Made by a program: the position numbers and the translations under genes. From Fibrobacterota bacterium (lineage in GTDB: Bacteria; Fibrobacterota; Fibrobacteria; UBA11236), in assembly GCA_028287465.1 (NCBI GenBank), contig JAQBPO010000064.1:72249-136248 (forward strand): a stretch of DNA of 64,000 nt, written 5' to 3'. This document shows positions 3,491-43,830 of the stretch, piece after piece. The first letter of the stretch is position 1. Each line of letters begins with the position of its first letter. Under the pieces are notes generated by a model. It was not told where the DNA came from. It searched no databases and worked only from the letters and a program-made list of their open reading frames with translations.

Positions 3491-3941
3491 TCTCGCCTTC
3501 CCATTTCCGCAAGACGGCGATCAGCTTTTCCTTTTCCTGCGGATCCAAATCCGCGGGCTTATGCGTCGCATCCAGGTATTTCGCGAACTGCTGGATATCC
3601 AACGGTTTGGACAGGAATCCCAAGACATTGGGGAATTTCCCCAGTTCCGATTTTTCCTTGAACTGGAATTCCGCCATGATGAGAACGGGAGCGGTCACCT
3701 TGGCCCGCAAAAGCCCTTTGAGAAAGCGGGGCGGATCGAGTCCCCGGGTGGGCAGGCCCAGAATGATGAGATGGTATTTCCGGGCCATTGCGTAGTGCAA
3801 GCCCACGGTTGCCGACTCGAAGGAATCCAGGGAATACTTCCTGGTCTGGCAGAACCTCTCGACCAATCTCAAAATCGCGGGCGGGGAGTTGATGTGGAGA
3901 AGCCGGCGCGTAGCCGGGGACGTCTCCTTGCGGGATTCCAT
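3474..3941 (-). CDS. CheY-like pseudo-receiver domain protein (the phospho-acceptor Asp and the acidic pocket are missing)
   Basis: 155 aa with REC-like topology. It has LIILG where LILD is expected, NSPP in place of the DD pair, and the conserved K is kept in FLSKP. It overlaps the FapA gene by 17 nt, so they form an operon. Confidence 0.45.
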   Translation of the reverse strand: MESRKETSPATRRLLHINSPPAILRLVERFCQTRKYSLDSFESATVGLHYAMARKYHLIILGLPTRGLDPPRFLKGLLRAKVTAPVLIMAEFQFKEKSELGKFPNVLGFLSKPLDIQQFAKYLDATHKPADLDPQEKEKLIAVLRKWEGEIEHAY

Positions 3942-4137
3942 TGTGTAGTAAGTAACGCACTACACTCGGGATCGAGTCAATTCTATTAGCAGAGGATATC
4001 CTTACAAGGCGTGCGCAATCCCTGGCATTTTACTTAAGTCGGTTTTCAAGGGGGTGCTTTTCCGTACTGTCGAATTTGCCGCCGGACCCCTAAAAGGGGT
4101 CCCCGCGCTTACGCGCTTTATCCGATGACCGAAAAAA

Positions 4138-27824: not shown

Positions 27825-30800
27825 TCACCCTCCCGCGATCGGGTCCTTTTCCCCGGCCGTTTCCCCGGCCGTTTCACCGGCCGTTTCACCGGCCAGGCCG
27901 ACCGCCTTGCCCGCATTGCCCGCGGGCTTTTCCTTATCCTTCCCGCCCGTGCCGTCCAGCACTTCCCGCACCTTGGCCGATAGGGCCGCCGGGCTGAAGG
28001 GCTTTCCGATGAAGGAGGCCTGCGCGGTATATACGCCGTGGCGGATGATGGCATCCTCGGTGTATCCCGACATGAACAATACCTTCACTTCGGGCCGGGT
28101 CGCCTTGAGCCGCTCCGCCAGCTCGCGTCCGCTCATCCCGCCCATCACCACGTCGGTCAGCAGCAAGTGGATGCCGGTGTCCCGGATCTTGGTCTCCAAC
28201 AGCTCCAGCGCCTGCTCACCGCCCGGGGCCTCGAAAACGGTATATCCTCCCACCTCGAGCACGTCGCGGACCAGACGCCGGACCGCATCCTCGTCTTCCA
28301 CCAGGAGGATGGTCTCGGTTCCGCCGGCGGAGCGCAGGGCGCGTTCCCGCATGCGCGATTTCTCCGGCTTCTCCTGCTTGGTCCCGGCCGGGAGGAAGAT
28401 CGAAAAGGTGGTGCCCTTCCCCGGCTCGGTCTCTACGCTGATGGATCCGTTCGACTGCTTGACCGCGCCGTAGACGGTCGACAGGCCGAGGCCCGTGCCC
28501 TTGTCCTTGGACTTGGTGGTGAAAAAGGGTTCGAACAGGCGCGAACGGGTCTCCGCATCCATGCCCGTCCCGTTGTCCGAAACGGTCAGCTGCGCGTACT
28601 CCCCGGGAGTCAATTCGAGGGTTGCCGGGGTGCGGGCCTCGTTCTTGAGATGGATGTTTTCGGTGGAAACCATGAGGTCGCCGCCGTTGGGAAGGGCGTC
28701 CCGCGCATTGAGGACCAGGTTGAGGATGACCTGTTCCATCTGGCTGGGGTCCGCGATCACCTTGGTCAGCTTGGGATCCAGGCGGGTCTGGAAGATGATG
28801 TTCTCGCCGATGAGGCGGCGCAGCATGGTTTCCATGCTCAGCACCACGGCGTTGAGATCGAGGACCCGGGGGGCCAGCACCTGCTTACGGCTGAAGGAGA
28901 GCAGCTGGCTCGTGAGGTCCGCCGCGCGCGCGCCGGCCTTGCGGATCTCCTCGATATGCGCGCGCTTGGGATCCTCCTTGGGCACGGTCATCAGGAGCAG
29001 ATCGCTGAAGCCGTTGATGGCGGTCAGCAGGTTGTTGAAATCATGGGCCACGCCCCCGGCGAGCCGCCCCACGGCCTCCATCTTCTGGGATTGGCGGAGC
29101 TTATCCTCGCTGGCCTTGAGCGCGTCCTCGGCCCGCTTCCGATCGTTGATATTCCGGACGATGCCCTCGAAATAGGCTACGCTCCCTCCCAGGCGCCGGA
29201 TGGGCTGGGCGTTCACTTCCACCCAAACCGGGACGGCCCTCTCGCGCTCCAGTTCCACCGAGAAGGTTTCGCCCTTGTCCGAGAAGGCGAGGGAATCCCC
29301 GCCCGCCGGCAGGAGGCGCGGCCGCACGGTTCCCACCAGTTGGCTGCGGTCCGAGTAACCCATCATGGCCACCAGGGCCGGATTGGCGTCCAGGACGGTC
29401 CCGTCCGGCGCGCAGCGGTAGATGCCGTCCAGGGAACGTTCGAACAGGGTGCGGTATTTCTCCTCGGAACGGCGCAGGTCCCGGTAAAGCAGCATGGCCC
29501 CGAGGGCCGTGGAGATGCGGGTGGAGATGTCCTTGAACATCGGGAATTCCTCGGCCCGCCAAGGCGCGGCGACCGGCCCGCGCAGGAGGCATAGGATCCA
29601 CGGACGGCCCACCTGGGGGCGCACCGAGATGGCTTTGATGGTACCGACGCGAAGGGAATCCCTCCAATACGGTTCGCCGGGGAGCGGCTGAACCCCTCCG
29701 AAGACCACGGGTTCGTCGCTGGCTTTGCAGGCCAACACGATTTCCTGGAAGCCGGCTTCCGCGGGCAGGGTCTCGATATCCGAGACGGCGAAAACCGGCT
29801 CGGCTTTGGCGGATCCCTTGCGCGGGCGCTCCGCCGAGAACTGGATGTGGAATCCCGTGGTTTCATCATCCGCGAGGTGGATGAGCCAGGCACGGTCGCA
29901 TGCGAATACGTCGAGCATCCTCGCCATGGCCGCAGGCAGGGCGCGCTCCACGTCCTGGGTACGTTCGATGGCGCCGGAAACCTGGTTCACGCCTTCCAGG
30001 TAACGCACGTGCTCGGCCGCGGAAACCTCCGCCCGCCGGACTTCCGAGATATCCTGCAGGACCGTGACCGCCAGATGGACCTTGCCTTGGCCGTCCAGGA
30101 TCGGCCTGGCGTTGACCACGACCCATCGCTCCATCCCCGTCTCCCGCGATCGGTAGCAAATCACCTCACCCTGTACGGTTTCGCCGAGCAGGGCGCGTCT
30201 CCCGGGAAGCCGTTCCTTGGGGTAGGGCTTCATGGATTCATCGAAGGTTTCATAGGGATGGAGAATCTTTTCGAAAGGCCGGTTGATGAGCTCTTCCGGG
30301 CGCGCGCAATCCAGCATCCGCGCGGCCGCGTCATTGGCGAAAACGGTAATGCCGGCCGTGTCGAAGGCGAATACGGGCGAATCCACCGTCTTGATGATGA
30401 TATCGAGCTCCAGGCGGGAAGGCAGGCCCGCCTCTTCCGTCGAGGGAACCGGTTCCGCGGATCCGCCGCGGGATCGACTTTCCTGGACAAGGTCGGCCAA
30501 GCTTCCAGCGAGGCTTTGGACCAATTCCCGCTCAGGCCCGGTCCAGTCCCTGGGTTCCGTGTCCCAGACCGCGAGAACCCCGAGGCATGACCCTTGCCCA
30601 TTCTTGACGGGAGCGCCGAGAAAGGCGCGCAGGCCTTCGGCGGGGAAACCGGAACCCGCTTGGTGCTTAGGCTTGGTCCCGCCTCCGTCCAGGGATTTCG
30701 ACAGGGGTCCCCCGAAAGCGGCATCCACCAGGAAGTCCCATTCCAGGGGCCATTCGGGCCGATCCATGAGTCCGGCCGGAAGGCCATGGAAACCCCTGGG

Positions 30801-30977
30801 AAGCAGGGATCTTTCCCCGAGCAGCAGGAACGCGGAGCTCGTGGCCCTTAGGCTCAGGGAAACCGTGCGGAGGAACCGATTGAGGGCTGGGGGAGGGTCG
30901 GATTCCGCCAAACCCGTCGCCGCCACGGCTCGCAATCGGGCTTCATCCGCCAGTCTGATCGGGTAATCCGGATGCAT
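27825..30977 (-). CDS. hybrid sensor histidine kinase / response regulator (GAF and PAS sensors, HisKA, HATPase_c, C-terminal receiver) with an (ETAG)n tail
   Basis: H-box QKMEAVGRLAGGVAHDFNNLLTAINGFSDLL. HATPase GTGMD...GTGLGLSTVYG. REC ILLVEDEDAVR...LLLTDVVMGGMSG...KVLFMSGY. Confidence 0.8.
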   Translation of the reverse strand: MHPDYPIRLADEARLRAVAATGLAESDPPPALNRFLRTVSLSLRATSSAFLLLGERSLLPRGFHGLPAGLMDRPEWPLEWDFLVDAAFGGPLSKSLDGGGTKPKHQAGSGFPAEGLRAFLGAPVKNGQGSCLGVLAVWDTEPRDWTGPERELVQSLAGSLADLVQESRSRGGSAEPVPSTEEAGLPSRLELDIIIKTVDSPVFAFDTAGITVFANDAAARMLDCARPEELINRPFEKILHPYETFDESMKPYPKERLPGRRALLGETVQGEVICYRSRETGMERWVVVNARPILDGQGKVHLAVTVLQDISEVRRAEVSAAEHVRYLEGVNQVSGAIERTQDVERALPAAMARMLDVFACDRAWLIHLADDETTGFHIQFSAERPRKGSAKAEPVFAVSDIETLPAEAGFQEIVLACKASDEPVVFGGVQPLPGEPYWRDSLRVGTIKAISVRPQVGRPWILCLLRGPVAAPWRAEEFPMFKDISTRISTALGAMLLYRDLRRSEEKYRTLFERSLDGIYRCAPDGTVLDANPALVAMMGYSDRSQLVGTVRPRLLPAGGDSLAFSDKGETFSVELERERAVPVWVEVNAQPIRRLGGSVAYFEGIVRNINDRKRAEDALKASEDKLRQSQKMEAVGRLAGGVAHDFNNLLTAINGFSDLLLMTVPKEDPKRAHIEEIRKAGARAADLTSQLLSFSRKQVLAPRVLDLNAVVLSMETMLRRLIGENIIFQTRLDPKLTKVIADPSQMEQVILNLVLNARDALPNGGDLMVSTENIHLKNEARTPATLELTPGEYAQLTVSDNGTGMDAETRSRLFEPFFTTKSKDKGTGLGLSTVYGAVKQSNGSISVETEPGKGTTFSIFLPAGTKQEKPEKSRMRERALRSAGGTETILLVEDEDAVRRLVRDVLEVGGYTVFEAPGGEQALELLETKIRDTGIHLLLTDVVMGGMSGRELAERLKATRPEVKVLFMSGYTEDAIIRHGVYTAQASFIGKPFSPAALSAKVREVLDGTGGKDKEKPAGNAGKAVGLAGETAGETAGETAGEKDPIAGG
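27851..27898 (+). repeat. 12-bp tandem repeat (ccggccgtttcc) x4 inside the 3' end of the kinase gene, in frame, encoding ETAG repeats
   Basis: ccccggccgttt ccccggccgttt caccggccgttt caccggcc. The protein tail is GETAGETAGETAGEKDPIAGG. Confidence 0.8.
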
Positions 30978-31254
30978 GTGTCCTTAGCGTTTGGTACGCG
31001 TCGCCCAGAAAGCTTCAATATATGAATTCCCCCTACCCGCATGGAAAAAAATGGCGAAGCTAACGATTCTGAAGGCCCCGCGATGGTGTGAAGGCTCCCC
31101 GGGAGCCTATAGACAAAGGGGTGCCCGCTTAATATCTTCTCGACCGCCTTGCAGGAAGCGCTCCGGGAAGAAACCGGAGATATGGAGAAACCGCCCATCG
31201 GGTGGATTCCCCTAAATGACCCGCCCGGCGGTTCATCGCATAACGAGGAATTCC

Positions 31255-31460
31255 GTGAGAATCGGAAGCGAGCTCGTCGCTGTAAGCGGTACGAAACTTC
31301 CAGGCGGAGCCCTTTCAATGGGCCGCCGACCACTGGTTCACCTCTACTTCGACCCCCGGGTCGGGAAGCGGACCGGGAAGGGGAAGGAGTAGGCAGGCAG
31401 TCGCGCCACAAGCGCGGCTTCCGGAATCCGCGAGCCAGAAGACTCACCTGCCAGGGATCT
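31255..31460 (+). promoter_or_regulatory. candidate cobalamin (AdoCbl) riboswitch in the 630-bp leader of the BtuB-like receptor gene
   Basis: Segments resembling btuB-leader elements, in the correct order. GGTACGAAACTTCC at 31288-31301 is like GGTGCGAAnTCC. GACCACTGG at 31328-31336 is B12-box-like. GGGAAGCGG and GGGAAGG follow. AGCCAGAAGAC-tca-CCTGCC at 31433-31452 compares with AGCCAGGAGACCTGCC. The matches are imperfect. Confidence 0.35.
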
Positions 31461-31608
31461 GATTGGCCTTCGAAGCCGAGGTCGACGGAATGCAGCCGGA
31501 ATCCCAAGGATCCCGATCCGCCTCCGTTGCCCCCCGTTCCGATAGTCCGGTCCCATACTGCGTCCCGTCCGGCCCAGATCCCGGACGCCGCGAGGAGTTT
31601 CGGGCATC

Positions 31609-33657
31609 ATGGCTTTACGGCCCGCCTATTTGGGGATCTACGCGATCCTGGTTTTCGCGCCGTGGGCCTTCCCCGCCGGGGCGGAACCGCGCGTAGACAC
31701 CTTGGAGCTCCCGGACCGGGAGGGGCGCCCGCTCCCGCCGCCGCCGGCCGCCGCCAAATCCGTGCTCATACCATCCGATGAGGATCGCCAGCTGAGGGAT
31801 CTGGGCGATGTCCTTGAACGCATGTCCGGCCTCCATGTGATGCGGACCGGGCAGTTGGGCGATTACCTGGGGGTTTCCATCCGCGGCTCCTCGGAAGGCC
31901 AGGTCAATGTCTATGTCAACGGAGTGCTCAAGAATCCCGGCGGGGACCCGTCCCTGTTCCTGGGGGATTACGATCTCTCGCGGGTGGAGCGCATCGAGGT
32001 CTATAAGGGGCTCGCTCCCGACGACCTTCCCGGATCCCCCATGGGCGGTGCCATCAATATCATAACGCGCCAGACCGCAAGCGGCCAAGGGGTGCGGGCG
32101 GCACTGACCGCCGGATCCTTCGGATCCCTCCGCGCCAATGGAAGCGTGGACGCGAGCCGGGACGGCCTGAAGCTTCACGCCCAGGCGGGCAGGGACCAGA
32201 GCGAGGGCGACTTCACCTACTACGATGACGCCGGCACGGAGTTCAAGCCCGGTCGGCATCCGGAAGGGGCGCCCAGGCTCGGTGAAGGCGATCTGGTCCG
32301 CAAGACCCGCAGGAACAACGCCCATGGCTTCAGCGAGTTCGACGCGGCCATCGCCTATGCCCCCGCCCCCAGTGCGGAGTTGGGGCTTCAGGCGGATTAT
32401 TCGAGCTTGCGCAAACACATCCCGTCTCCTTATGCGAGCGTCGACTCCTCCGTTTCGGTCGCGGCCTTCCGCGAATCCGATCGCCTCTCGGCCCGCGCCT
32501 ACGGCCGCTGGTCCCTTCCGGGGCTCGAATTGGGCGCGGACGTCTCGGGCGGCTTCCAGGGCGACCTTTTCGTGGACACCTCCATGGCCGGCGGCGCCGT
32601 AGGATTGGGATACGACGATGACGGCAACGACTATTCGGATGCCGCGGTCACCCTCACGGCGCGCGCGGGGATTAGGGAAGGGTTGACCCTTTCCGCCCTG
32701 GCCTCGTACGGGTTAACGGGCTATCGCTACACCAATCGCTTCACGGGAATCGGCCATCCCACCCTGCTCCGCTATACAGGCGACGGGAAGATCACGCCTA
32801 CCTGGGTCTTCCGCCGCCACACCCTGCAGGCCGTCCTCGGCGCCACCCTTCATCTGGAGGAGGAGAGCGCGGGGCCCGCAACGGCCTACGGAGCGGCGGA
32901 AGGATCGGACGGCGATCGTGGCGGGCACTATTCCGCGCGCCTGGGCTACCAGTACCGCCCGTTCGACGGCTTCTGGCTTTTCCTCCAGGGCGGCAATGCC
33001 TATCGGATCCCCACCTTCTTCGAGCGTTTCGGGGATCGCGGCACCCTGCTCGCCAACCCGGATCTGCGTTCCGAGGCGGGCCTGAACGCCTCGATCGGGG
33101 CTCATGCCCAATCGCGCTCGATCTCGCTTGACGTGCAGGGATTCGTCTCGGACGGTAAGCGCATCATCACCATGGTGACGAACTCCCAGTTCGTGATGAT
33201 ATACCGTAACTCCGGGGATACCCGTACCTATGGGCTGGAGGCGGGCCTGTCCCTGGCGCCGAGGACCTGGACCCGCACCGATCTGGATCTCACCCTGCAA
33301 AAGGCCGAGAACCTGTCCGGCGGGACCAAGGTGGACGACTACAAGCTCATCCCCTACCGCCCCCTGACCCAGGCCTCCCTGCGCCAGACCTTCAAGCGCG
33401 GACCCTGGTCGCTCGCGGCCTTGGGATACTACCAGGGCCTCACCTATCCCAACGCCTCGAACCGGCCCAGCCTGTTCGACGGATACAGCCACAATACCGA
33501 ATGGAAGTCCCATTGCGATCTCACGCTTTCCCGGCGGGGCCGGCACGTCCTGGCCGCCGCCTCGGTGCGCAACCTTTTCGACTCCCGCGATTTCGATTTC
33601 TTCAACTACCCCTTGCCGGGCCGGAGCTACGCCGCCACCCTGCAGACCGATTTCTAA
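31609..33657 (+). CDS. TonB-dependent outer-membrane receptor (BtuB-like by context)
   Basis: Signal peptide. Plug-domain motifs GVSIRGSSEGQVNVYVNGV and RIEVYKG. It is 682 aa and ends with a C-terminal Phe (...LQTDF). Confidence 0.75.
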   Translation: MALRPAYLGIYAILVFAPWAFPAGAEPRVDTLELPDREGRPLPPPPAAAKSVLIPSDEDRQLRDLGDVLERMSGLHVMRTGQLGDYLGVSIRGSSEGQVNVYVNGVLKNPGGDPSLFLGDYDLSRVERIEVYKGLAPDDLPGSPMGGAINIITRQTASGQGVRAALTAGSFGSLRANGSVDASRDGLKLHAQAGRDQSEGDFTYYDDAGTEFKPGRHPEGAPRLGEGDLVRKTRRNNAHGFSEFDAAIAYAPAPSAELGLQADYSSLRKHIPSPYASVDSSVSVAAFRESDRLSARAYGRWSLPGLELGADVSGGFQGDLFVDTSMAGGAVGLGYDDDGNDYSDAAVTLTARAGIREGLTLSALASYGLTGYRYTNRFTGIGHPTLLRYTGDGKITPTWVFRRHTLQAVLGATLHLEEESAGPATAYGAAEGSDGDRGGHYSARLGYQYRPFDGFWLFLQGGNAYRIPTFFERFGDRGTLLANPDLRSEAGLNASIGAHAQSRSISLDVQGFVSDGKRIITMVTNSQFVMIYRNSGDTRTYGLEAGLSLAPRTWTRTDLDLTLQKAENLSGGTKVDDYKLIPYRPLTQASLRQTFKRGPWSLAALGYYQGLTYPNASNRPSLFDGYSHNTEWKSHCDLTLSRRGRHVLAAASVRNLFDSRDFDFFNYPLPGRSYAATLQTDF

Positions 33658-33676
33658 CCCAAGCAAAAGGATCCTC

Positions 33677-34795
33677 ATGCCATTCAACACTCCTAGCCGC
33701 GCCCGCGCCGGCATCGCCATCCTCGGTCTCCTGTCCGTGGCGGGACTCGATTCCTGCTTGAACCAGGAAAAGGCGGACGATCCGGTCAGTACCGAAAAGG
33801 CCTTCGTATTCACCGTGAATTCGGACTACAAGACCGGCAGCTATTCCGCTACCGGCATCGACAGCGCATTCGTCAGCCGCGACATCGACGCCATCCACTC
33901 CGATGCGGGCGTACGCTACCTGGGCGGCAACGACATTTTCGTGCTCAACCGGTTCGGGCGGGACAATCTGCAGGTCGTGGATCGCCATAACCTCAAGACG
34001 GTCCTCCAGGTCGCCTTTCCGGCGTTATCCAACCCGCACGATATCGCGGTCAAGGACAGCCTGCTCTACGTCGGTTTTTACGGCGCCTATTCCAAGATCG
34101 GCATCTACAAGCAGTCGGACGGGACCAAGGCCGGGGAAATCGATCTGGCCGCTTACGCGGATACCGCCGATCATTTCCCCGAAGTGACCGAGCTCCTGTT
34201 CATCGGCAAGGATCTCTACGCCCTGATCGCCAACATGGACAACAAGACCTACGGATTCCTGCAGGGCCGCCTCGCGAAAATCGATGTCGCGACCAAGGAG
34301 GTCAAGGTCCTGGACCTTCCCATCAGCAATCCCGTTTCCATGTCCTACGACAAGGCCGCGAACAAATTGTACATCCCCTGCCGCGGGGCCTTCTTCAAGC
34401 CGGGCTCCTTTACCGACCTGGAACTGGACGGCGGCATCGTGGGCGTGAAGCTCTCCGCATTCTCCATCGCGGACACCCTCGCCACGGAAGCCGCCCTGGG
34501 CGGCAGCCTGGGCAAGGCCTATCTGGACGACGGGCGCCTGATCATGGACCTCACCGCAACGGCGGGAGAAAAGCTGGTCGCCATCTCCCTGAAGGACGGC
34601 AAGGCGGAGGAGTGGGCGTCGCTGAAGCCGTATAGCCTGGGCGGCACCGACATCGACGCGAAGAACGGCACCTTGTACATCGGCGATCGCGAAAATGGGT
34701 TGCGCTTTTTCGACCTCGCGACCGGTAAGGAAAAGGACGGGTCCCCGATCAGGATGAGCGATCTGCCCATCAGCGATCTGGCCGTGATCCGGTGA
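33677..34795 (+). CDS. surface lipoprotein with beta-propeller-like repeats (BtuG/YncE-like by context)
   Basis: Lipobox AGLDSC. Repeated blade-end motifs ...LYVGFYG, ...LYALIAN, ...LYIPCRG and ...LYIGDRE. It sits immediately downstream of the TonB receptor. Confidence 0.45.
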   Translation: MPFNTPSRARAGIAILGLLSVAGLDSCLNQEKADDPVSTEKAFVFTVNSDYKTGSYSATGIDSAFVSRDIDAIHSDAGVRYLGGNDIFVLNRFGRDNLQVVDRHNLKTVLQVAFPALSNPHDIAVKDSLLYVGFYGAYSKIGIYKQSDGTKAGEIDLAAYADTADHFPEVTELLFIGKDLYALIANMDNKTYGFLQGRLAKIDVATKEVKVLDLPISNPVSMSYDKAANKLYIPCRGAFFKPGSFTDLELDGGIVGVKLSAFSIADTLATEAALGGSLGKAYLDDGRLIMDLTATAGEKLVAISLKDGKAEEWASLKPYSLGGTDIDAKNGTLYIGDRENGLRFFDLATGKEKDGSPIRMSDLPISDLAVIR

Positions 34796-35001
34796 TTCCG
34801 AGGGAGACGGTCCTGAGCGCGGTCGTTTCGCCCTGCACCCGCCTCTGCAGGCTCGATGGGGATCGGCATCACTGCCTCGGCTGCGGCCGCACCCTGCCGG
34901 AATTGGCGGAATGGGCCTCAGCCCCCGATACGCGCAAAAACGGGATCCTGGAAAGGCTCGCGGCTTCCGGTTTCACGCCGCGCCCTCCTGACCTGATTTG
35001 A
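34792..35001 (+). CDS. DUF1289-type small Cys-rich (putative Fe-S / zinc) protein
   Basis: SPCTRLCRLDGDRHHCLGCGRTLPELAEW pattern. ATGA overlap with the upstream gene. Confidence 0.5.
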   Translation: MIPRETVLSAVVSPCTRLCRLDGDRHHCLGCGRTLPELAEWASAPDTRKNGILERLAASGFTPRPPDLI

Positions 35002-35038: not shown

Positions 35039-36922
35039 ATGCTCCGCTTTTCCTGGGAATGGGATCTGCTGGCTTCCCCGGAAGCCCTTTGGCCCCTGGT
35101 TTCGGATTCCGATCGCTTCAACCGCGATTCCGGGATCCCCAACCTCGTGATGAGGGGGGAAGGACCCGAAAGGGTGATCGCCTTCAAGAAATTCGGCTAC
35201 CTGGTGCGTTGGCGCGAAGAACCGTTCGAATGGTCCCGTCCGCGCCGCTTCGCGGCCGCGCGCCATTACCTGAGCGGACCGTTCCGGGAAATGAAGGTCG
35301 CGGTCCACCTGGATCCTTTGCCCTCGGGAGGCACGCGCCTGCGGTACGAAACCACCGTGGAACCGCGTCATCCCTGGTCCGGTCCCGCCCTGTCCCTGGG
35401 ATTCCGTCTGATCCTGAAGCGCCGCTTCACCGCGATCTTCCGCGCCTATGATCGGGCCGCTATACGATCCGCATCGGACCCGCAATCCCAGGCGGATCCG
35501 GCTTCCGGAGGCGCGCCGGGCATGCTGCGCGCTCCCGCCGCCGCGCCGCTCACCGCTCCGGAACGTACCTTCGCCCCCTCCGGCAAGGCCCGCCTGTCCG
35601 CGCGCTTCCAGGACCTGCTTGCCGCAGGGGCCGACCCGCGCCTGGCCGCACGCCTGCGCCTGTTGCTGGAGGACGGTGACGATTCGGAACTGACCCGCAT
35701 CCGTCCCTATGCCATGGCCGCCGTCTGGGGAGCCGATCGCAGGGCCACCCTGGAAACCTGCATGCTCGCGGCCCGGACCGGTCTCCTGGATTTCCGCTGG
35801 GATCTGCTGTGCCCGTCCTGCCGCGGGGCCAAATTCACCGCCGCCCGCCTCAAGGACATCCGCGGGCCCGTGCATTGCGATTCCTGCAACATCGATTTCC
35901 GCGCCGCCTTCGATCGTTCCGTAGAGGTCACCTTCGCGGCCAACCGCTCCATCCGCGCTCCTTCGTCGGGGGAGTACTGCGTAGGCAGCCCCCAACGCAC
36001 TCCCCATGTGCACCTGCGCCATACCCTGGAGCCGCGCACGGCCATGACCGTGGATCTGGTCCTCGATCCGGGAAGGTACCGCCTGCGTTCCCCTTCCTTC
36101 GAAGGCGCCTGTCACCTGCGCGCCGGGAAGGACGGGAACGTCCACGCGCATGCCGAACCCGGTCCCGGAGGCTGGCCCCACGGCGAGACGGTCTGGAATA
36201 CCCATACGCGCCTATCCCTGGCCAATCCCACGGACCGCCCACTCGTATTCATCCTGGAGCGCAATGCCTGGGCCGACGACGCGGCCACGGCCGCCGAGGT
36301 CACCGCCCTGCAAAGCTTCCGCGATTTGTTCGCCGACGAGGCGCTGCGCCCGGGCGAGGAGATATCGGTGGGCAGCCTGGCCTTCCTCTTCACCGATCTG
36401 CGCGGTTCCACCCGCCTCTACCGCGATGCCGGCGACGCCAAGGCCTTCGGCCTGGTCATGGAGCATTTCGACATCCTCAAGGCCGTCATAGCCGAAGAGG
36501 GCGGCGCGGTGGTCAAGACCATCGGCGACGCCGTGATGGCCGTATTCCCCAGGCCCCATTCCGCCGTGCGCGCGGCCCTGGAAGCGCACCGCCGCCTCCG
36601 GGAATCGCAGCCTTCCCTGGTGCTCAAGGCCGGGGTCCATTGCGGCCCCTGCATCGCCGTGAGCCAGAACGATCGCCTGGATTATTTCGGTTCCACCCTC
36701 AACCTGTCCGCGCGGCTGCTGGGGTTCTCCCAAGGGGGTGACCTGGTGGTTACCCAGGAGACCGGGCGGGATCCGGAAACCGCCTCCTGGCTGGCGGCCA
36801 ATGCCGGCACCTGCAAGATCGAGAAAATCAGCACCCCGATCCGGGGTTTCGAACAGGACGCCTTCGCCCTCCTGCGTATTTCCCCCGATGCGGCCGTATC
36901 CGCCCCCGCCGTGACGAAATAA
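35039..36922 (+). CDS. class III adenylate/guanylate cyclase domain protein with an N-terminal ligand-binding-like domain and a Cys4 zinc-ribbon-like segment
   Basis: Cyclase domain FLFTDLRGSTRLY...VVKTIGDAVMAVFP...GVHCGPCIAV...GSTLNLSARL. CPSCRG...CDSC in the middle. Confidence 0.65.
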   Translation: MLRFSWEWDLLASPEALWPLVSDSDRFNRDSGIPNLVMRGEGPERVIAFKKFGYLVRWREEPFEWSRPRRFAAARHYLSGPFREMKVAVHLDPLPSGGTRLRYETTVEPRHPWSGPALSLGFRLILKRRFTAIFRAYDRAAIRSASDPQSQADPASGGAPGMLRAPAAAPLTAPERTFAPSGKARLSARFQDLLAAGADPRLAARLRLLLEDGDDSELTRIRPYAMAAVWGADRRATLETCMLAARTGLLDFRWDLLCPSCRGAKFTAARLKDIRGPVHCDSCNIDFRAAFDRSVEVTFAANRSIRAPSSGEYCVGSPQRTPHVHLRHTLEPRTAMTVDLVLDPGRYRLRSPSFEGACHLRAGKDGNVHAHAEPGPGGWPHGETVWNTHTRLSLANPTDRPLVFILERNAWADDAATAAEVTALQSFRDLFADEALRPGEEISVGSLAFLFTDLRGSTRLYRDAGDAKAFGLVMEHFDILKAVIAEEGGAVVKTIGDAVMAVFPRPHSAVRAALEAHRRLRESQPSLVLKAGVHCGPCIAVSQNDRLDYFGSTLNLSARLLGFSQGGDLVVTQETGRDPETASWLAANAGTCKIEKISTPIRGFEQDAFALLRISPDAAVSAPAVTK

Positions 36923-37035
36923 ACCGCAACCTTTCCCAAAAAACCAAAGCTTTTAGTCAGATCTTTGTCATATCATAAGGGTGATTGGGGGATTGGCGTC
37001 CCCTGGCCCGCCGCCCGGGTACGCCAGACAATCTT

Positions 37036-38862
37036 ATGGTGATCAGCCCTTCGCGAACCGTCCTTCGGCCCGTCCTTCTCACCGCCTTCTACCTGTTTTG
37101 CCCAAATCTCTTTTGCGCTAAACCCGCCGCGGCTGCCGAGGACTACGCCGCATGGCCCAACGCCACCGACGTCATCCTGAACACCTCCGCGACCGGCGCC
37201 GGCGTGGCCGGCACCGTCGCCAATTTCCCGGTGCTGGTACGGCTCACCTCCGCCAACTTCCCCTTTTCCCAGGCCGGCGGGAAAGGCCGGGACATCCGTT
37301 TCTCGAAACAGGATCGCACCCCGCTCGATTACGAGATCGAACGCTGGGACTCGACCCGCGCCCAGGCCGAGATCTGGGTCAGGCTGGACGAGGTGCGCGG
37401 GAACGCCGCGGGACAGATCGTGCGGATGTACTGGGGAAACCCGTCGGCCGCGGACAGTTCCGACGCGGCGGCCGTCTTCCGGGGGGCTGACGGCTATGTG
37501 GCCGCCTGGCACTTGGGGGTTCCCGGGACCGCGGCGCGCCCGAACGCGGTGGCGGGAGGCAATCCGGCGGCGCCCAACTCGTACGATGGGGACGAGAATT
37601 CCGCCGGCCTCATCGCCGGCGCGGACAGCCTGGACGGAACCGCTACCGGGGATTTCCTGGACATCGGCGACGGTTATACGGAGTTCACCGCCGGATTCAC
37701 CTATTCGGCCTGGGTCTATCCCACCGCCATGAAACGATGGTCGCACGTCCTCGACCTGGGGAACGGCACCGGCAACGACAACATCATCGTGAACCGGGTG
37801 GACACCACCGCGGCCATGGGATTCCACAATTGGACCGGGACCAACTCCTACGCCAAGGAGGTGCCCAACCAATGGGCGCTCAATCAATGGCAGTTCATCA
37901 CGGTCACCATGACGGGGAAGAACGTGCGCATGTACAAGAACGGCGCGCAAATCCTGGCGGACACCCTTCCCGGCGCCATGACCGGCGTGAACCGCACGAC
38001 CAACTACCTGGGCAAATCCAACTGGGCCGCGGACGATTTCTTCCAGGGCAAGCTGGACGAACCCGTTCTGGCCAAGACCGTGCGCAGCGCCGACTGGATC
38101 AAGCTGAGCTACCAGAACCAGCGCGCCGCCCAGACCCTGGTGACGGTGGTGAAGCCGGTGCAGTGCGCGGCCAGGATAAGCGTCCCCCCCGATACCACGG
38201 TGCCGGAAGGCGGTTCACTTACCCTGAACGCCGGCGTCGAATGCGCGGCGGGCTTCTCCTGGTCCGTGATCTCCGGGCCGGCGCCGCGCATCCTGGATCC
38301 GGAAACCAAATCCCTGGCCGTAGCGATCCCCCGCGTGGCCGCCGACACCGTCATCGTGTACCGCCTGACCGCGGAATTCTCCGACTCCACCAGGACCCGG
38401 GACGTGCGCGTGCGCATCAAGGAATCCATCCCGGATCCGATCTTCACCCTTCCCGCCATCCCATCCTGGAGCGGCAAGGAAGCGATTGCCTACCGGCCCG
38501 CCATCTCCAACCTGGCCGCCATCAAGGCCAGCCGGGATTCGGCGCTGCATTGGACGTGGAGTTTCGCCGGACCGGCCGTGGATACGTCCTGGCTGGAGGA
38601 CGGCATGACCTTGAAAAGCGCGGAGGGCGCGGGCGCATTGCAGATCGGGTTGTGCCTGGACAACGGCGGGCCGATCGTTTGCAGGAACGCCGCTTTGACC
38701 ATCACCGGTTCCGCGGCCTCCATGCTCCAGGCCCAATCGACTCCCCAAGGCCAAATAACCAAAACGGACCCCGGCCGTGACGCCCTCGGAAGGGCGGCGG
38801 ACGGGCCGATTACGCCTCGCAAGGCCGGCCGGCCGGGAATTGCGCGTTACCCCCGAAAATAA
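37036..38862 (+). CDS. secreted DUF2341 + LamG (concanavalin-A-like) protein, MshQ-like, with a shared C-terminal module; paralog A
   Basis: DUF2341-like FPVLVRLTSANFPFSQAGGKGRDIRFS...YEIERWD...AEIWVRL. LamG-like FTYSAWVYPTA...NQWQFITVTMTGKNVRMYKNGAQI...FQGKLDEP. Start placed at MVISPSRTVLRPVLLTAFYLFCP (signal peptide). Confidence 0.55.
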   Translation: MVISPSRTVLRPVLLTAFYLFCPNLFCAKPAAAAEDYAAWPNATDVILNTSATGAGVAGTVANFPVLVRLTSANFPFSQAGGKGRDIRFSKQDRTPLDYEIERWDSTRAQAEIWVRLDEVRGNAAGQIVRMYWGNPSAADSSDAAAVFRGADGYVAAWHLGVPGTAARPNAVAGGNPAAPNSYDGDENSAGLIAGADSLDGTATGDFLDIGDGYTEFTAGFTYSAWVYPTAMKRWSHVLDLGNGTGNDNIIVNRVDTTAAMGFHNWTGTNSYAKEVPNQWALNQWQFITVTMTGKNVRMYKNGAQILADTLPGAMTGVNRTTNYLGKSNWAADDFFQGKLDEPVLAKTVRSADWIKLSYQNQRAAQTLVTVVKPVQCAARISVPPDTTVPEGGSLTLNAGVECAAGFSWSVISGPAPRILDPETKSLAVAIPRVAADTVIVYRLTAEFSDSTRTRDVRVRIKESIPDPIFTLPAIPSWSGKEAIAYRPAISNLAAIKASRDSALHWTWSFAGPAVDTSWLEDGMTLKSAEGAGALQIGLCLDNGGPIVCRNAALTITGSAASMLQAQSTPQGQITKTDPGRDALGRAADGPITPRKAGRPGIARYPRK

Positions 38863-39006
38863 ATCCAGCCTCCGCCCAAGATCCTAAAACGATTTCCCGC
38901 CTCCGGGACGTATCGTATTGGCGGGGGGATGACGTTCCGGCTACCGCCGGGGCGGCGTCATCAAGATCACGTGGCAAACAACCTGGCTCGCGATTTCCGT
39001 CGTACC

Positions 39007-40833
39007 ATGCTCAACATCGGCTCCAAGGCCTTCCTTACGGCTTCGGCCCTGGGCGCCGTGGCCATGATGGCCGCCGCGGAAGCGGCGGAAAACTATTCCA
39101 CCTGGGGACGCGCCTCGGACCTCATCCTGGATACCTCGCCCGCGGGCGCGGACGTTCCCGGCCCCCTGAGCGACTTCCCCCTGCTGGTCCGGCTCAACGC
39201 GTCCAACTTCACCTTCGCCGAAGCGCGCGGCCGGGGCCAGGACATCCGCTTCTCCGATGCGGCCGGGTCGCCGCTCGACTACCAGATCGAGCGCTGGGAT
39301 TCCGCGCGGGCCCTCGCGGAGATCTGGGTCAGGATCCCCCTTGTCTCGGGCAATGCCGCCGGGCAGACCTACCATATGCATTGGGGCAAATCGACGGCCG
39401 CCGACAGTTCGGACGGGCGGGCGGTGTTTTCGAACCACCAGGTGGCGGTGTGGCACATGGGCGGGACCGGAGCCAACGCCCGCGCAAACTCCGCCCCAGG
39501 CGGCCAGGCGGCCCAACCGTACAATTACGAATCCGACAAATCCCGCGATGGCATCATCGCCAAGGCGGACACCCTGGACGGCCAGGATCCCGGCGATTAC
39601 CTGGACATCGGGGACGGATACCAGGACTTCTCCGGCGGCTTCAGCTTTTCCATCTGGGCCTACCCGACCGCCGTGAAGAACTACGCCCGCTTCTTCGAAT
39701 TGGGCAACGGCGAAAGCGCGGACAATATCATGCTCACGCGCGACGGGACATCCGACGACCTGCGATTCGACAATTACAATCCCGGGGCCACGGTAAGCAC
39801 GGTCAAAAGCGGCGCGGCCATCTCCCTGAACCAATGGCAGCAATTCGGCGTCAACGTCTCCACGTCCGGGCTCGCGAAGATCTACAAGAACGGCGCGGTC
39901 ATCGCGCAAGGACAGCTCACCAATACCGTAGCCAACGTCTGGCGCGCTTCCAACTTCCTGGGGAAATCGAATTGGACCTGGGACGCCTATTTCCAGGGCA
40001 TGCTGGACGAACCGGCGCTGAGCAATATCAGCCACAGCGACAACTGGTACAAGCTCTGCTACCAGAACCAGAGGCAGGCCCAGACCCTGGTCACGGTCAA
40101 GCGCCCCGCCCTCTGCCAATCCCGGTTCAAGGGGCAGGCCGACACGGCGGTGAATGAAGGAGCCACGGTGAATCTGACGGGCACGGCAGACTGCGCTACC
40201 GGGGTATCCTGGAGCGTCCTTTCCGGGCCCGCCCCGCGCATCCTCGATCCGGAAATGAAGGTCCTCACGGTCGCGATGCCCCGCGTTTCCGGGGAGACCG
40301 TCATCGTCTACCGGTTCGCCGCCGCCTACGCGGATTCCTCGCCCTACAAGGATGTCCGGGTGACCATACGGGAGACCGTCCCCGATCCCGATTTCACCAT
40401 GCCTCCGCTCACCGCATGGGACGGCAAGATCGCCGTGGCCTACCGGCCCGCCATCGCGAACCTTTCCGCCATCAAGGCTTCGGCGTCTCCCGTCATCCAT
40501 TGGGCCTGGACCTTGTCCGGCGTGGCCGCGGATACCGCCTGGCTCGCGGACGGACTCAACCTCAAGACCGCCGCGGCGGAAGGGCCCTTGCAGATAGGAT
40601 TGTGCCTGGACAATTCCGGTGCCCGCGTTTGCAAATCAGCCTCGATCACGGTCTCCCGCACCGCCGGCAGCACCTCGTCCTTGATCGATCGGACCGCCGC
40701 CTCGGCCAAGCGCCCGGGGGATCCCAGGGCGGACCGTGAATGGCGCGACGCATCCGGCCGTCTCCGGACCGGCGCCTACGGCGGCATCAACCCGGGCGGC
40801 CGCTTCGCAGGCAAATCCAGGCCAGCCCCATGA
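39007..40833 (+). CDS. secreted DUF2341 + LamG protein; paralog B of the upstream gene
   Basis: Same architecture and about 60% identity to paralog A (FPLLVRLNASNFTFAEARGRGQDIRFS...). Signal peptide MLNIGSKAFLTASALGAVAMMAAA. Confidence 0.55.
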   Translation: MLNIGSKAFLTASALGAVAMMAAAEAAENYSTWGRASDLILDTSPAGADVPGPLSDFPLLVRLNASNFTFAEARGRGQDIRFSDAAGSPLDYQIERWDSARALAEIWVRIPLVSGNAAGQTYHMHWGKSTAADSSDGRAVFSNHQVAVWHMGGTGANARANSAPGGQAAQPYNYESDKSRDGIIAKADTLDGQDPGDYLDIGDGYQDFSGGFSFSIWAYPTAVKNYARFFELGNGESADNIMLTRDGTSDDLRFDNYNPGATVSTVKSGAAISLNQWQQFGVNVSTSGLAKIYKNGAVIAQGQLTNTVANVWRASNFLGKSNWTWDAYFQGMLDEPALSNISHSDNWYKLCYQNQRQAQTLVTVKRPALCQSRFKGQADTAVNEGATVNLTGTADCATGVSWSVLSGPAPRILDPEMKVLTVAMPRVSGETVIVYRFAAAYADSSPYKDVRVTIRETVPDPDFTMPPLTAWDGKIAVAYRPAIANLSAIKASASPVIHWAWTLSGVAADTAWLADGLNLKTAAAEGPLQIGLCLDNSGARVCKSASITVSRTAGSTSSLIDRTAASAKRPGDPRADREWRDASGRLRTGAYGGINPGGRFAGKSRPAP

Positions 40834-41836
40834 ACAGCGCCGTGGCCCCGTAGGCCAGGGTTATCATGCGGGTTACGTCCCGGGGCGCCCCCCCTTCCGG
40901 AGCGTCACCGGGCCCGATCCATATTTCATTGACCAGGATCCCGTGTTTGCGGATGGGGCCCGCCAGGCGGATATCCAACGCCCCGGCCGCGGCGGTCTCG
41001 CTCCAACCCTTGTTGGGGCCCGGCAAAAGGGCATGCTGGCCGATCGCGACGGTCCAGGCCTTGCGCCCGGAGTATCCCGGAACGAGGCAAGCGAAGAGGG
41101 CAATGAGGCCCAGGCAGAGGCGCGCCGGGATCCAATTCATCACGTCGTCCAGGCGCGCGCCGAACCAGCCGAAGCGGAGATAACGTTCGTCCTTGTATCC
41201 CACCATGGAATCCATGGTGCTCGCCACCTTGAACAGGATAAGGCCCGGCAGGCCCAGCAAGGCGAACCAGAACAAAGGCGCGATCACGCCGTCGCATAGG
41301 CTTTCAGCCAGGCTTTCCACCGCGGCCCGGTTGCACGCCGCGAAGTCCATGCTGTCGACGTCCCGGCCCACCAGCATGGCCGTGGCCGCACGGGACGCGG
41401 CCAAATCCCCGCGCCGGGTGGCCACCGCAATCCGTTTGCCGTGGCGGATGAGATCGCCGAGGGCCAACAGGCTGTATCCCAGATAGGCCCTCCAGATCCA
41501 ATCCATCGCCCAGCCATAGGCGGGCGCGCCCGCGGCCTCCCCGGCCTTCCTCAGGGCGAAGGACACGGCCCAACCGGCGCCGTCGAAACCGGCCGCGAGG
41601 GACAGGAAGAGGAGGAATCCGCCGAACCGCCCGTCCAGACCGAACCAGCGCAGTCGGGATTCGGCCGACGCCAACGCCTTGCCCATCACCCGGATGGGGT
41701 GCAACCGGTACTGCGGATCGCCCAGGACGATGTCGAGCGCGAGGCAGATGGCGATGAAGGGGAAAGGGCCCCGGAGCGGGCCGTCCGGTCCGAACAGGCC
41801 GATGATGCCCACCCTTACTTCCATTTCTCGCGCCAC
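40787..41836 (-). CDS. cobD: cobalamin biosynthesis protein CobD/CbiB (adenosylcobinamide-phosphate synthase)
   Basis: Polytopic membrane protein with LGDPQYRLHPIRVMG and RD...SPNKGWSETAAAGALDIRLAGP motifs, about 330 aa. Confidence 0.7.
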   Translation of the reverse strand: MAREMEVRVGIIGLFGPDGPLRGPFPFIAICLALDIVLGDPQYRLHPIRVMGKALASAESRLRWFGLDGRFGGFLLFLSLAAGFDGAGWAVSFALRKAGEAAGAPAYGWAMDWIWRAYLGYSLLALGDLIRHGKRIAVATRRGDLAASRAATAMLVGRDVDSMDFAACNRAAVESLAESLCDGVIAPLFWFALLGLPGLILFKVASTMDSMVGYKDERYLRFGWFGARLDDVMNWIPARLCLGLIALFACLVPGYSGRKAWTVAIGQHALLPGPNKGWSETAAAGALDIRLAGPIRKHGILVNEIWIGPGDAPEGGAPRDVTRMITLAYGATALFMGLAWICLRSGRPG

Positions 41837-43011
41837 CCCAGGGCCAAGGCCTGCGCGGCCAGCGCGGGAATATCGGAGGATTGCGCCGCCAGGGCCGAGC
41901 GGAAGTACGGGAATGCTTCCGTCTTCGCCGCCAGCCCCGCCGCCATCATGGCCGCCTGGTTGGCCAGGAGTTCCCGGCCCGAGGCTTCAGGTAGGGTTCC
42001 GTATGCGATGCGATCGCGCACCGCGGCCAAGGCGTAAGCCGCTCCGGCCACGAGGGGTTCATGGACCACGGCCTGGAAGTTCGCCTGCAGCAGGGCCCGG
42101 TCCTTCTCCTCGAGATGCGCGCATGCGGCCTCGAGCAGCTTCGCCTCTTCCACCCCGAACCTCCCCAGGGCGTGGATGAGATTGCGGGTGCGCGAAGGTT
42201 CCAGCCCGTTCTGCCAGCGCAGGGCTTCCTTGGTCGCTTCCGTCACGGCGCGGGCGAGGATCTCACCCAGCTTGGAATGCTTACCGGTCCAGGTCTTGGG
42301 GCCGCGGGCGGGATCGATGGGCGCGGCAAGGCAGAACTGGTCCGTGCCGGTTCCGGTGGCCAGGTTCGGGGAAAAGCGGCTGGACACGGCCAGCTCCAGG
42401 AGCGCCGCCGTCTTCGCTTCGGTCATGGTGGCTACGGCGCGGCTCAAGGCGGCGGGCAGCAAAGGCCAATTGAAGATCACCATGGTATTGATGGTTCCCG
42501 GGACGGCATGAACGGGTTTCCAGGCGGTCGCGGCGTTCCCCGTCCCGGCCGCTCCGCCCTCCATGCCGCTCTCATGCTTTTCATGCCAGGTGGCGGGATC
42601 CCCCGCCCTGCCCGCATTGCCCTGCACGCCGGCGGTCACGACCGACCATACCGTGATCTCCTCGAAGGACTCCTCCCGGACCGATGCGTACTGCATGTTC
42701 GCGGCCGTGCCCATCAAGGCGGTTTCCTCCGCCGGGACCCCGGCCTCTTCGCAGGCCAGGCCATGGTAGGCCTCCTGTCCCTGTCCGATCAAGATGTCAT
42801 GGCGGGCGATATGCCCCTTCCCTTCCGTGCTCTGATGGTTCAGGAGGAAGCGCATCCGTTCGGACTGGCCTCCGTTCACGTGGGAGGTGGAGAGGACCAG
42901 ATGGGGTTTTTTTAGATCGGCGGACAGGAAACGGCCTCGCCTGCGCAGGGTGAACCCGTCCGTCTCCAGCAAGGTGATCGCGTCGGCGGCGGGATCGTTG
43001 GCGTTCTTCAT
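41815..43011 (-). CDS. CbiZ-like adenosylcobinamide amidohydrolase family protein with a C-terminal extension of about 150 aa
   Basis: Start placed at MKNANDPAADAITLLETDGF. The longer ORF N-terminus is GC-artefact-like. It contains LVLSTSHVNGG and GTGTDQF segments and overlaps cobD by 22 nt. The family assignment is from memory. Confidence 0.35.
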   Translation of the reverse strand: MKNANDPAADAITLLETDGFTLRRRGRFLSADLKKPHLVLSTSHVNGGQSERMRFLLNHQSTEGKGHIARHDILIGQGQEAYHGLACEEAGVPAEETALMGTAANMQYASVREESFEEITVWSVVTAGVQGNAGRAGDPATWHEKHESGMEGGAAGTGNAATAWKPVHAVPGTINTMVIFNWPLLPAALSRAVATMTEAKTAALLELAVSSRFSPNLATGTGTDQFCLAAPIDPARGPKTWTGKHSKLGEILARAVTEATKEALRWQNGLEPSRTRNLIHALGRFGVEEAKLLEAACAHLEEKDRALLQANFQAVVHEPLVAGAAYALAAVRDRIAYGTLPEASGRELLANQAAMMAAGLAAKTEAFPYFRSALAAQSSDIPALAAQALALGWREKWK

Positions 43012-43056
43012 CGCCGAAAAGTAGCACCAAAGCGGGACAGGCGGTAGAATCGGGGT

Positions 43057-43830
43057 ATGAGGTCCCTGGCCGCGGCCGCCGCCGCCTGCATGTTCCTGTC
43101 CTGCCTTGCCCCGTGGCAATCCGGCGAGCGCTCCTGCGCGGATTCGGCGCGCCTGGATTTCCCCGTGGATCTGGCGGCCTATGCGGCCAACGGCAGCCTG
43201 TGGCCCTTCGGCGTCCACGGAGGCACCAATCCGGAAGGCCATCCCGGCATCGACCTGTTCCTGGATACCGCCGACGCGGAGGGGGATATCGCCGTCCGGG
43301 CCTCTTTCTCCTCCGAGATCATCTCCATAACGCCGGAAACGGAATTCCCCGGCAGCTCCTGCATCGTCATGGATTCCGCCTGCGTGGAAGTGAACCTCTG
43401 CCATGTGCGCTTGGATCCGTCCCTCAAGGAAGGCGGCAAGGTGAAGCGCGGGCAGGTGCTCGGGACCGTAGGCCTGGCCGGGAGCGAGGGCCGCTTGGCC
43501 CTGCATTTCGGGACGTACAGCGGCCGGGACGCCGACCTGGCGTGCCCGGCGGATTTCCTGGATCCGGATACCGTGCTATGCCGCCTGGGGCTTTCCGCGG
43601 GGGGGAAGGCGCCTTCCCGGTGTGGTTACGCGCCGGGTACGGTAACCTTGATGGGACGATCGGAATACGGGGAGCGCTTTCCCCGGGAGCTTGCCGTCAA
43701 GTGCGCGGACGGGTCCACCCAGGTATTCGACCTCGCCGCCGAGAACGCCCTCTGCAGCCCCCGTTATTCCCCAGCGGACCGCTCCCGGATGCTGACCTGC
43801 CTGGGCAATGCCTGCGCCGGGGTCTGGTAG
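43057..43830 (+). CDS. lipoprotein, possibly an M23/LytM-like metallopeptidase domain
   Basis: Lipobox MFLSCLAP. HPGIDLF and RLALHFGTY resemble the M23 HxxxD and HxH motifs. Rich in Cys. Confidence 0.3.
   Translation: MRSLAAAAAACMFLSCLAPWQSGERSCADSARLDFPVDLAAYAANGSLWPFGVHGGTNPEGHPGIDLFLDTADAEGDIAVRASFSSEIISITPETEFPGSSCIVMDSACVEVNLCHVRLDPSLKEGGKVKRGQVLGTVGLAGSEGRLALHFGTYSGRDADLACPADFLDPDTVLCRLGLSAGGKAPSRCGYAPGTVTLMGRSEYGERFPRELAVKCADGSTQVFDLAAENALCSPRYSPADRSRMLTCLGNACAGVW

Follow-up and report, generated by a model that had tools for sequence, protein, structure and literature searches.

Several described uptake systems pair a TonB-dependent receptor with a beta-propeller protein. In Bacteroides thetaiotaomicron, corrinoids are imported by the pairs BtuB1G1, BtuB2G2 and BtuB3G3, in which the lipoprotein BtuG caps the receptor BtuB (PDB 8blw, 8bmx, and 8p97/8p98; Wexler 2018, Abellon-Ruiz 2023), and BtuG was reported to be exclusive to Bacteroidetes on the basis of BlastP (Wexler et al. 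2018, PMC6143338). The xenosiderophore system XusAB of Bacteroides (PDB 9gbc, 9hqk) likewise consists of a TonB-dependent receptor with a seven-bladed propeller lipoprotein as its cap, and in Escherichia coli the TonB-dependent receptor YncD stands beside the seven-bladed propeller YncE. Here, we describe a locus in a 64,000-nucleotide stretch of DNA from a Fibrobacterota bacterium (assembly GCA_028287465.1, contig JAQBPO010000064.1, positions 72,249 to 136,248 of the forward strand). This whole stretch is referred to below as the window, and positions follow its numbering. In it, a cobalamin riboswitch precedes the genes of a TonB-dependent receptor and of a lipoprotein, both of which would be remote homologs of the BtuBG pairs. 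The best explanation of the locus, well backed by gene context, protein fold and distant homology, is B12-repressed corrinoid uptake by a lipoprotein-capped transporter encoded in a two-gene operon, to which we assign a probability of roughly three in four. A preliminary description of this DNA had proposed a cobalamin riboswitch leading a BtuB-like and BtuG-like locus, and that interpretation is supported by the analysis. The three components are as follows.

31147-31455 (+): cobalamin riboswitch aptamer of the class with a P6 extension, 309 nt, from the RF00174 match and comparative analysis
31609-33657 (+): TonB-dependent receptor, 682 aa, with a signal peptide, a TonB-box-like DTLEL, a plug and a 22-strand barrel
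33677-34795 (+): lipoprotein, 372 aa, with lipobox Cys27, a predicted seven-bladed beta-propeller and putative remote homolog of BtuG

The whole window was searched on both strands with cmscan against all 4227 Rfam families, and only two matches scored above the gathering score, one tRNA and RF00174. The latter was found at 31212-31463 (+), where it covers model positions 1-189 and scores 53.3 bits (gathering score 31.5, E = 1.9e-10), a match that is no chance resemblance. Sequence comparison thus confirms the RNA at 31147-31455 as a genuine cobalamin riboswitch, an ordinary new instance of a well-known family, and its ligand is most likely of the adenosylcobalamin type. The same scan of the 64 kb revealed no second riboswitch, including upstream of the cbiZ gene described below. 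The leader was compared in alignments of 11-15 related leaders. Its elements are given here.

31147-31155 with 31447-31455 (+): P1 closing helix, from covariation
31158-31160 with 31237-31239 (+): P2, 3 bp, GCG with CGC
31161-31179 (+): inserted hairpin H1, from folding of relatives
31184-31212 (+): inserted hairpin P0, from folding of relatives, covarying
31216-31236 (+): inserted hairpin P2', from covariation
31245-31247 with 31443-31445 (+): P3, GAG with CUC
31251-31267 (+): P4/L4
31268-31280 (+): P5/L5, with L5 reading GCUCG at 31272-31276
31329-31336 (+): core motif GCCACUGG, GCCACUG type
31370-31378 (+): core motif CCGGGAAGG, GGGAAG type
31433-31443 (+): B12 box AGCCAGAAGAC, a AGYCMGGAGACC-type element

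The B12 box AGCCAGAAGAC and the two core motifs aligned to the RF00174 consensus at high posterior probability and are invariant in 11 relatives, while P2' and the P6 extension covary and P2 reads GCC:GGC in one relative (L011). The motifs from which the riboswitch had been proposed are present where they had been placed, namely GGTACGAAACTTCC at 31289-31302, the hairpin ggcggagccc..gggccgcc at 31304-31327, GACCACTGG at 31328-31336, the GGGAAG elements at 31372-31385 and AGCCAGAAGACTCACCTGCC at 31433-31452. Two of the labels attached to them had to be changed. The segment GACCACTGG, previously named B12-box-like, corresponds to the conserved GCCACUG core motif, and the 4-nt insertion that had been read into AGCCAGAAGACtcaCCTGCC does not exist, because CUC at 31443-31445 forms the 3' side of P3 opposite GAG at 31245-31247; the cmscan alignment accommodates it without a gap.

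The aptamer is also larger than the span of 31255-31460 first attributed to it. In an alignment of both strands of P1, pairing was found in 92.3% of the cells, against 35-64% when the partner was slid by 1-3 columns, and two of the nine pairs show compensatory double changes (four relatives have A-U for G-C, and one has U-A for C-G). These results identify 31147-31155/31447-31455 as the true P1 and give the aptamer its length of 309 nt. Two other candidates for P1 were rejected. The helix drawn by cmscan (31220-31232 with 31447-31459) contains many non-canonical pairs, because its 5' segment belongs to the local covarying hairpin P2', and a helix between GAUUCCCC (31205-31212) and GGGAUC would use the 3' arm of the covarying hairpin P0, the real P1 lying further out. 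Whereas the Rfam model has one optional hairpin between P1 and P3, the window RNA has three (H1, P0 and P2'), and this insertion causes cmscan to misassign P1 and to start its match about 65 nt too late at the 5' end. The three hairpins are preceded by a near-invariant CCUUGCAGG, the reverse complement of CCUGCAAGG, which follows P3 at the 3' end. When the upstream regions were folded, the same architecture was obtained in 14 relatives despite their differing sequences; the insertion is a clade-specific elaboration. In its remaining features the RNA resembles the E. coli btuB-leader type, with a full-length model match, a B12 box, the GCCACUGG core, a P3-P6 junction and a P6 extension. As in E. 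coli, it lies in the 5' leader of a gene for an outer-membrane corrinoid receptor, a role that is presumed in this case.

The strongest functional evidence is the linkage between the riboswitch, the receptor and the lipoprotein across loci. The lipoprotein has homologs on 11 genome contigs and six metagenome contigs, and further loci from other lineages were obtained by exact look-ups. An RF00174 match (46-98 bits in the relatives) precedes the receptor at short distance and in the same orientation in all 21 loci that have the receptor-lipoprotein pair and upstream DNA, which are not independent observations since about 14 of them share the conserved Fibrobacteria leader. In each locus, a receptor homolog separates the riboswitch from the lipoprotein. 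The hosts belong to Fibrobacterota, Ca. Eiseniibacteriota and unclassified bacteria, and in the distant loci, whose members are 25-38% identical, the riboswitch is still found. For instance, in L009 and L010 the receptor is 31% and the lipoprotein 36-38% identical, the latter being longer, and L020 and L022 encode Ca. Eiseniibacteriota-type proteins with a C-terminal FlgD-Ig domain. The most distant homolog (L024), the sole one with no neighboring receptor, has no riboswitch. Within Fibrobacteria, synteny comprises the kinase, the riboswitch, the receptor, the lipoprotein, an SRPBCC-DUF5939-cyclase gene, one or two DUF2341/LamG genes and the convergent cbiB-cbiZ pair, while distant loci keep only the riboswitch-receptor-lipoprotein core.

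Some loci show particular arrangements. L018, from an unclassified bacterium of a separate lineage, has two further genes between the riboswitch and the receptor (1619-3983), encoding a 475-aa protein without a Pfam match and a 310-aa dockerin-like protein, which may take part in additional extracellular corrinoid handling. In L023 (1-10268) and L025 (141-9939), two unrelated metagenomic loci, two multihaem cytochrome genes precede the riboswitch-receptor-lipoprotein unit, and a TonB gene follows it, succeeded by a convergent FecCD/ABC/Peripla_BP_2 (BtuFCD-like) transporter. L009 (CAZRWX010000081.1) is labeled 'uncultured Bifidobacteriales bacterium' yet has a TonB-dependent receptor and the full architecture, an incongruity that probably reflects faulty binning or taxonomy. 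A 1083-aa receptor-lipoprotein fusion (P0061) in L021 (4220-7471) was considered as Rosetta-stone evidence and rejected as such: it arises from the in-frame loss of the receptor stop (TAA to GAA), its lipoprotein part keeps its own Met, signal peptide and lipobox, and from its sequence it is probably a sequencing error or a pseudo-fusion.

The lipoprotein of the window is 100% identical to the Fibrobacteres protein JWP91_3154 from a metagenome-assembled genome (MAG), and its closest relatives are about 50 'hypothetical proteins' of Fibrobacteria MAGs and metagenomes. Its signal peptide ends in GLDSC27, and Cys27 is invariant in 27 close homologs and kept by at least 90% of a diverse set of 68. 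The predicted structure is confident and forms a seven-bladed beta-propeller closest to the solved BtuG structures, and two structure-comparison methods, independent of each other, both placed BtuG first. When the close family alone was searched as a profile, BtuG was not reached. With the profile of the 68 diverse members, 12 distinct BtuG sequences of the PDB were matched at 1.2e-8 to 1e-6, and YncE came behind at 2.5e-4, as expected of a member of the same superfamily; some homologs of the lipoprotein are labeled 'YncE' by JGI. In addition, six of the 68 members individually match Pfam PF16819/DUF5074. The BtuG matches of the broad profile and these six members indicate, at the level of sequence families, that the lipoprotein is a remote homolog of BtuG, belonging to a branch missing from present family libraries, and not a Pfam-level member of DUF5074. 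The branch is large: a hidden Markov model of the family, searched against 1.84 billion representative proteins (clusters defined at 50% identity, from public genomes and metagenomes), gave 4126 clusters at E<=1e-3, a count that falls to 2234 at E<=1e-10 and to 740 at E<=1e-30.

A function can be proposed from the distribution of conserved residues. The polar residues conserved in the family (D50, D76, N91, R92, D96, N119, D162, D165, E169, N218, D251 and E271) are all situated in odd-to-even strand loops of the model, in blades 1-5, and judging from the predicted strand order they would lie on one face of the propeller. This would parallel BtuG2, where residues of blades 1-4 form 13 hydrogen bonds to corrin amide side chains (PMC10404256). 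By analogy, the lipoprotein is presumed to be the corrinoid-capturing lid of the receptor. Several observations weigh against so close an equivalence with BtuG. Taken alone, the window lipoprotein has no sequence match in Pfam (including DUF5074), NCBIfam or the PDB, its identity to BtuG in structural alignments is 14-16%, and the invariant Asn119, Asp122, Asp162 and Asp165 are not identical in BtuG3 in the aligned segment of the profile alignment, so that the binding chemistry is not transferable from BtuG. The locus differs from the BtuBG loci in other respects as well, as its host is a member of Fibrobacterota and the locus encodes neither BtuH, nor another accessory binder, nor btuFCD. With these points taken into account, we consider it slightly better than an even bet that the lipoprotein family is a large unannotated sister family of BtuG, acting as the corrinoid-capturing lid of riboswitch-controlled receptors in Fibrobacterota, Ca. 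Eiseniibacteriota and other uncultured soil and sediment bacteria.

Variation in domain composition was observed within the family. The lipoproteins of L009 (6398-8029) and L010 (6167-8023) are extended at the N terminus by 200-280 aa for which neither Pfam nor the PDB gave a sequence match, and this extension recalls the extra domain of BtuG1, while other members end in a C-terminal FlgD-Ig domain and one of them in a Por secretion tail.

The lid role presupposes that the lipoprotein is exposed at the cell surface, and to our knowledge surface exposure of lipoproteins has not been established for Fibrobacterota, which counts against this role. The protein could instead be periplasmic, with its anchor either in the inner membrane or in the inner leaflet of the outer one, and there it would serve as a BtuF-like shuttle or a corrinoid store, with the riboswitch and the receptor as described above. 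We consider this arrangement unlikely. The best structural and profile matches are to the surface-exposed BtuG and not to YncE, the closest structural relatives of the receptor (XusA and BtuB1-3) carry propeller lids, and the distant loci L023 and L025 encode, beside the lipoprotein, a distinct Peripla_BP_2 binding protein, so that the lipoprotein does not replace BtuF there. Still less probable is that the propeller is an enzyme, for example of the Ca2+-dependent lactonase/hydrolase type, which would modify corrinoids or another substrate outside the cytoplasm. The sequence matches behind such a role are not significant, BtuG outscores enzyme-type propellers by every method, and the strict adjacency of the gene to that of a TonB-dependent receptor fits the delivery of a substrate. 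Capture of corrinoids by a surface lid thus remains the preferred role of the lipoprotein.

By its sequence, the partner is a generic TonB-dependent receptor. It has a Pfam Plug match, the DTLEL that follows the signal peptide is kept as DTLxL in the family, and its AlphaFold model shows a barrel with a plug (pLDDT 82.3). Among PDB sequences, E. coli BtuB was matched over the plug only (about 1e-9), and BtuB1 of B. thetaiotaomicron was matched weakly over the barrel. The receptor is not an equivalog of BtuB as judged by the NCBIfam models TIGR01779 and NF007926, which gave 60.4 bits (cut-off 599.7) and 47.7 bits (cut-off 836), in the plug region only. In the Foldseek comparison, the top match was the siderophore transporter XusA (E 1.9e-34), followed by BtuB3, BtuB2 and BtuB1 of B. 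thetaiotaomicron at ranks 2-5 and 7 (3e-31 to 2e-30), which had the highest TM scores (0.81-0.84), and many unrelated receptors came next at about 2e-30. Both the low equivalog scores and the first rank of XusA speak against a simple assignment to BtuB. The four best targets all carry a propeller lipoprotein as a lid, yet they lead by a narrow margin, and therefore the BtuB-like label is mainly based on context, by which the protein is presumed to be a corrinoid transporter. That the pair is instead a XusAB-like importer of xenosiderophores or other metallophores, or a YncD/YncE-like system, is very improbable, even with XusA as the top match of the receptor, with XusB and YncE as further seven-bladed propellers matching the lipoprotein and with the JGI label 'iron complex outer membrane receptor' on most receptor homologs. 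The lipoprotein was not found to be most similar to XusB. Compared with XusAB, capping of the receptor is a prediction in the window pair.

The control of this presumed corrinoid transporter was analyzed in the leader. The non-coding region that had been pointed out as unusually long measures 631 bp between the start of a divergent histidine kinase gene (30977) and the ATG of the receptor (31609), and it contains, besides the aptamer, the following features.

27825-30977 (-): hybrid histidine kinase gene, divergent from the receptor gene
31110-31138 (+): sigma-70-like promoter TAGACA-17 nt-TATCTT, from a consensus scan and conservation
31456-31608 (+): expression platform, 153 nt, from alignments and RNAalifold
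31463-31485 (+): near-invariant hairpin directly 3' of P1, at the P13 position
31510-31575 (+): stretch rich in C and poor in G (66 nt, of which 32 C and 14 G)
31575-31584 (+): conserved element CAGAUCCCGG, complementary to 31451-31461
31580-31585 with 31599-31604 (+): hairpin CCCGGA/UUCGGG enclosing the Shine-Dalgarno (SD) sequence, with CAGAUCCCGG in the 5' arm
31592-31597 (+): SD sequence GAGGAG, 11 nt before the ATG

Both promoter hexamers are kept in 14 of 14 close relatives while the sequence of the spacer is variable, and the position of the promoter would place the transcript start at about 31145, directly before P1. The arrangement TAGACA-17-TATCTT may be a promoter consensus for this clade of uncultured Fibrobacteria.

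Cobalamin riboswitches on uptake genes are switched OFF by their ligand, and the same direction is adopted here by analogy with this established behavior. Transcription would begin at about 31145, and the first 309 nt would fold as the aptamer. When intracellular cobalamin is plentiful, it would bind the aptamer and lock P1, and expression of the receptor and of the co-transcribed lipoprotein, whose ATG lies 19 nt past the receptor stop as had been described, would fall. The most likely route is that the SD sequence is kept enclosed in the conserved hairpin at 31575-31605, and Rho-dependent termination in the C-rich leader may add to the repression. When cobalamin is scarce, the uptake genes would be expressed, the lipid-tethered lipoprotein would capture corrinoids on its conserved polar face and pass them to the capped receptor, and import would be energized by TonB, as in Bacteroides BtuBG. 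Imported corrinoid or cobinamide could then be remodeled by the neighboring salvage enzymes CbiZ and CbiB.

Translational repression through SD sequestration with cobalamin bound, possibly aided by Rho on the C-rich leader, is the best inference for the mode of control. Neither in the leader nor behind the operon did any intrinsic terminator exceed shuffled expectation, and in this and in the presence of an SD-proximal hairpin the window leader is like the translationally acting switches of the btuB type. Unlike the RF00174 examples, it has a long expression platform (153 nt) with a C-rich stretch, and no L5-L13 kissing loop was identified. The near-invariant hairpin occupies the position that P13 has in characterized cobalamin riboswitches and is followed by variable hairpins. 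The C-rich stretch resembles a Rho utilization site.

The switching model for the window leader, which depends on predicted folds, is weak. In partition-function folding, the SD sequence was mostly paired in all relatives, with an unpaired probability of 0.01-0.38 in both states. The segment complementary to CAGAUCCCGG, 31451-31461, consists of the outer half of the P1 3' strand and GAUCUG, and this suggests an alternative linked to P1, in which a locked P1 would free CAGAUCCCGG for the SD sequestor and an open P1 would capture it; folding did not substantiate this alternative. An anti-sequestor formed by GGGAUCUG (31454-31461) with CAGAUCCC (31575-31582) was tried as the means of freeing the SD sequence, and blocking it in silico left SD accessibility unchanged. 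The complementarity itself is real and is kept in most close relatives, but it is absent from L011 and weakened in L007, and the pairing is retained only as an unproven possibility of the folding model. A convincing L5-L13 kissing loop was not found in the window leader or its relatives: L5 is invariant in close relatives, and the loop of the hairpin at the P13 position has at most three bases complementary to its GCUCG. These three results weigh against this switching model.

Although the riboswitch is a matter of routine annotation, its partner protein gives the locus its value. In a full-text literature search, no paper mentioned both BtuG and Fibrobacter, and DUF5074 was mentioned only in two unrelated ones. 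The observations suggest that an uptake design reported only in Bacteroidetes is also present in Fibrobacterota and other uncultured bacteria, and a BtuG-like family outside Bacteroidota would be a modest but useful extension of the known system. If this is true, lipoprotein-capped B12 piracy of very high affinity would be widespread and would shape corrinoid competition in the environment, instead of being a speciality of gut Bacteroidetes. The pair is a concrete candidate for corrinoid scavenging by uncultured soil and sediment bacteria, and the family offers a new, sequence-divergent set of proteins for studying B12 binding by propellers. The order of riboswitch, receptor and then a lipoprotein of this family also provides an annotation rule for many 'hypothetical proteins'.

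Three neighboring genes of the window had been linked to the locus by the preliminary description.

34792-35001 (+): DUF1289 Cys-rich protein, 69 aa, Pfam E 6e-15, with a GTG start overlapping the lipoprotein stop (GTGA)
40787-41836 (-): cbiB/cobD, Pfam CobD_Cbib 2.8e-79, convergent to the uptake genes
41815-43506 (-): cbiZ, 563 aa, Pfam CbiZ 1.3e-50, overlapping cbiB by 22 nt

The DUF1289 gene is present after the lipoprotein gene as had been noted, and the two are probably co-transcribed. As a member of the system it is ruled out by its occurrence only in the window and its closest relative (L001), being absent from 16 other loci checked. The cobD and cbiZ genes that had been reported downstream were both recovered with Pfam and NCBIfam; as part of the supporting context they are qualified by their position on the opposite strand, outside the control of this riboswitch. 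The NCBIfam model TIGR00380 scores above its cut-off in the region of the pair (40787-43506). In the cbiZ product, the CbiZ domain comprises residues 198-425, neither the N-terminal region (about 197 aa) nor the C-terminal one (about 138 aa) is matched by Pfam, and NCBIfam gave a weak match to the bifunctional CbiS (hydrolase/alpha-ribazole phosphatase). The pair is a corrinoid-salvage pair that serves as context only, and it is syntenic with the receptor-lipoprotein pair in L002-L008, L013, L017 and L021. Beyond CbiB and CbiZ, no cobalamin genes or B12-dependent enzymes were found in the window. The region between the uptake genes and the salvage pair (35039-40833) encodes an SRPBCC-DUF5939-adenylate/guanylate cyclase and two paralogous DUF2341/LamG proteins, which are kept in most of the Fibrobacteria relatives.

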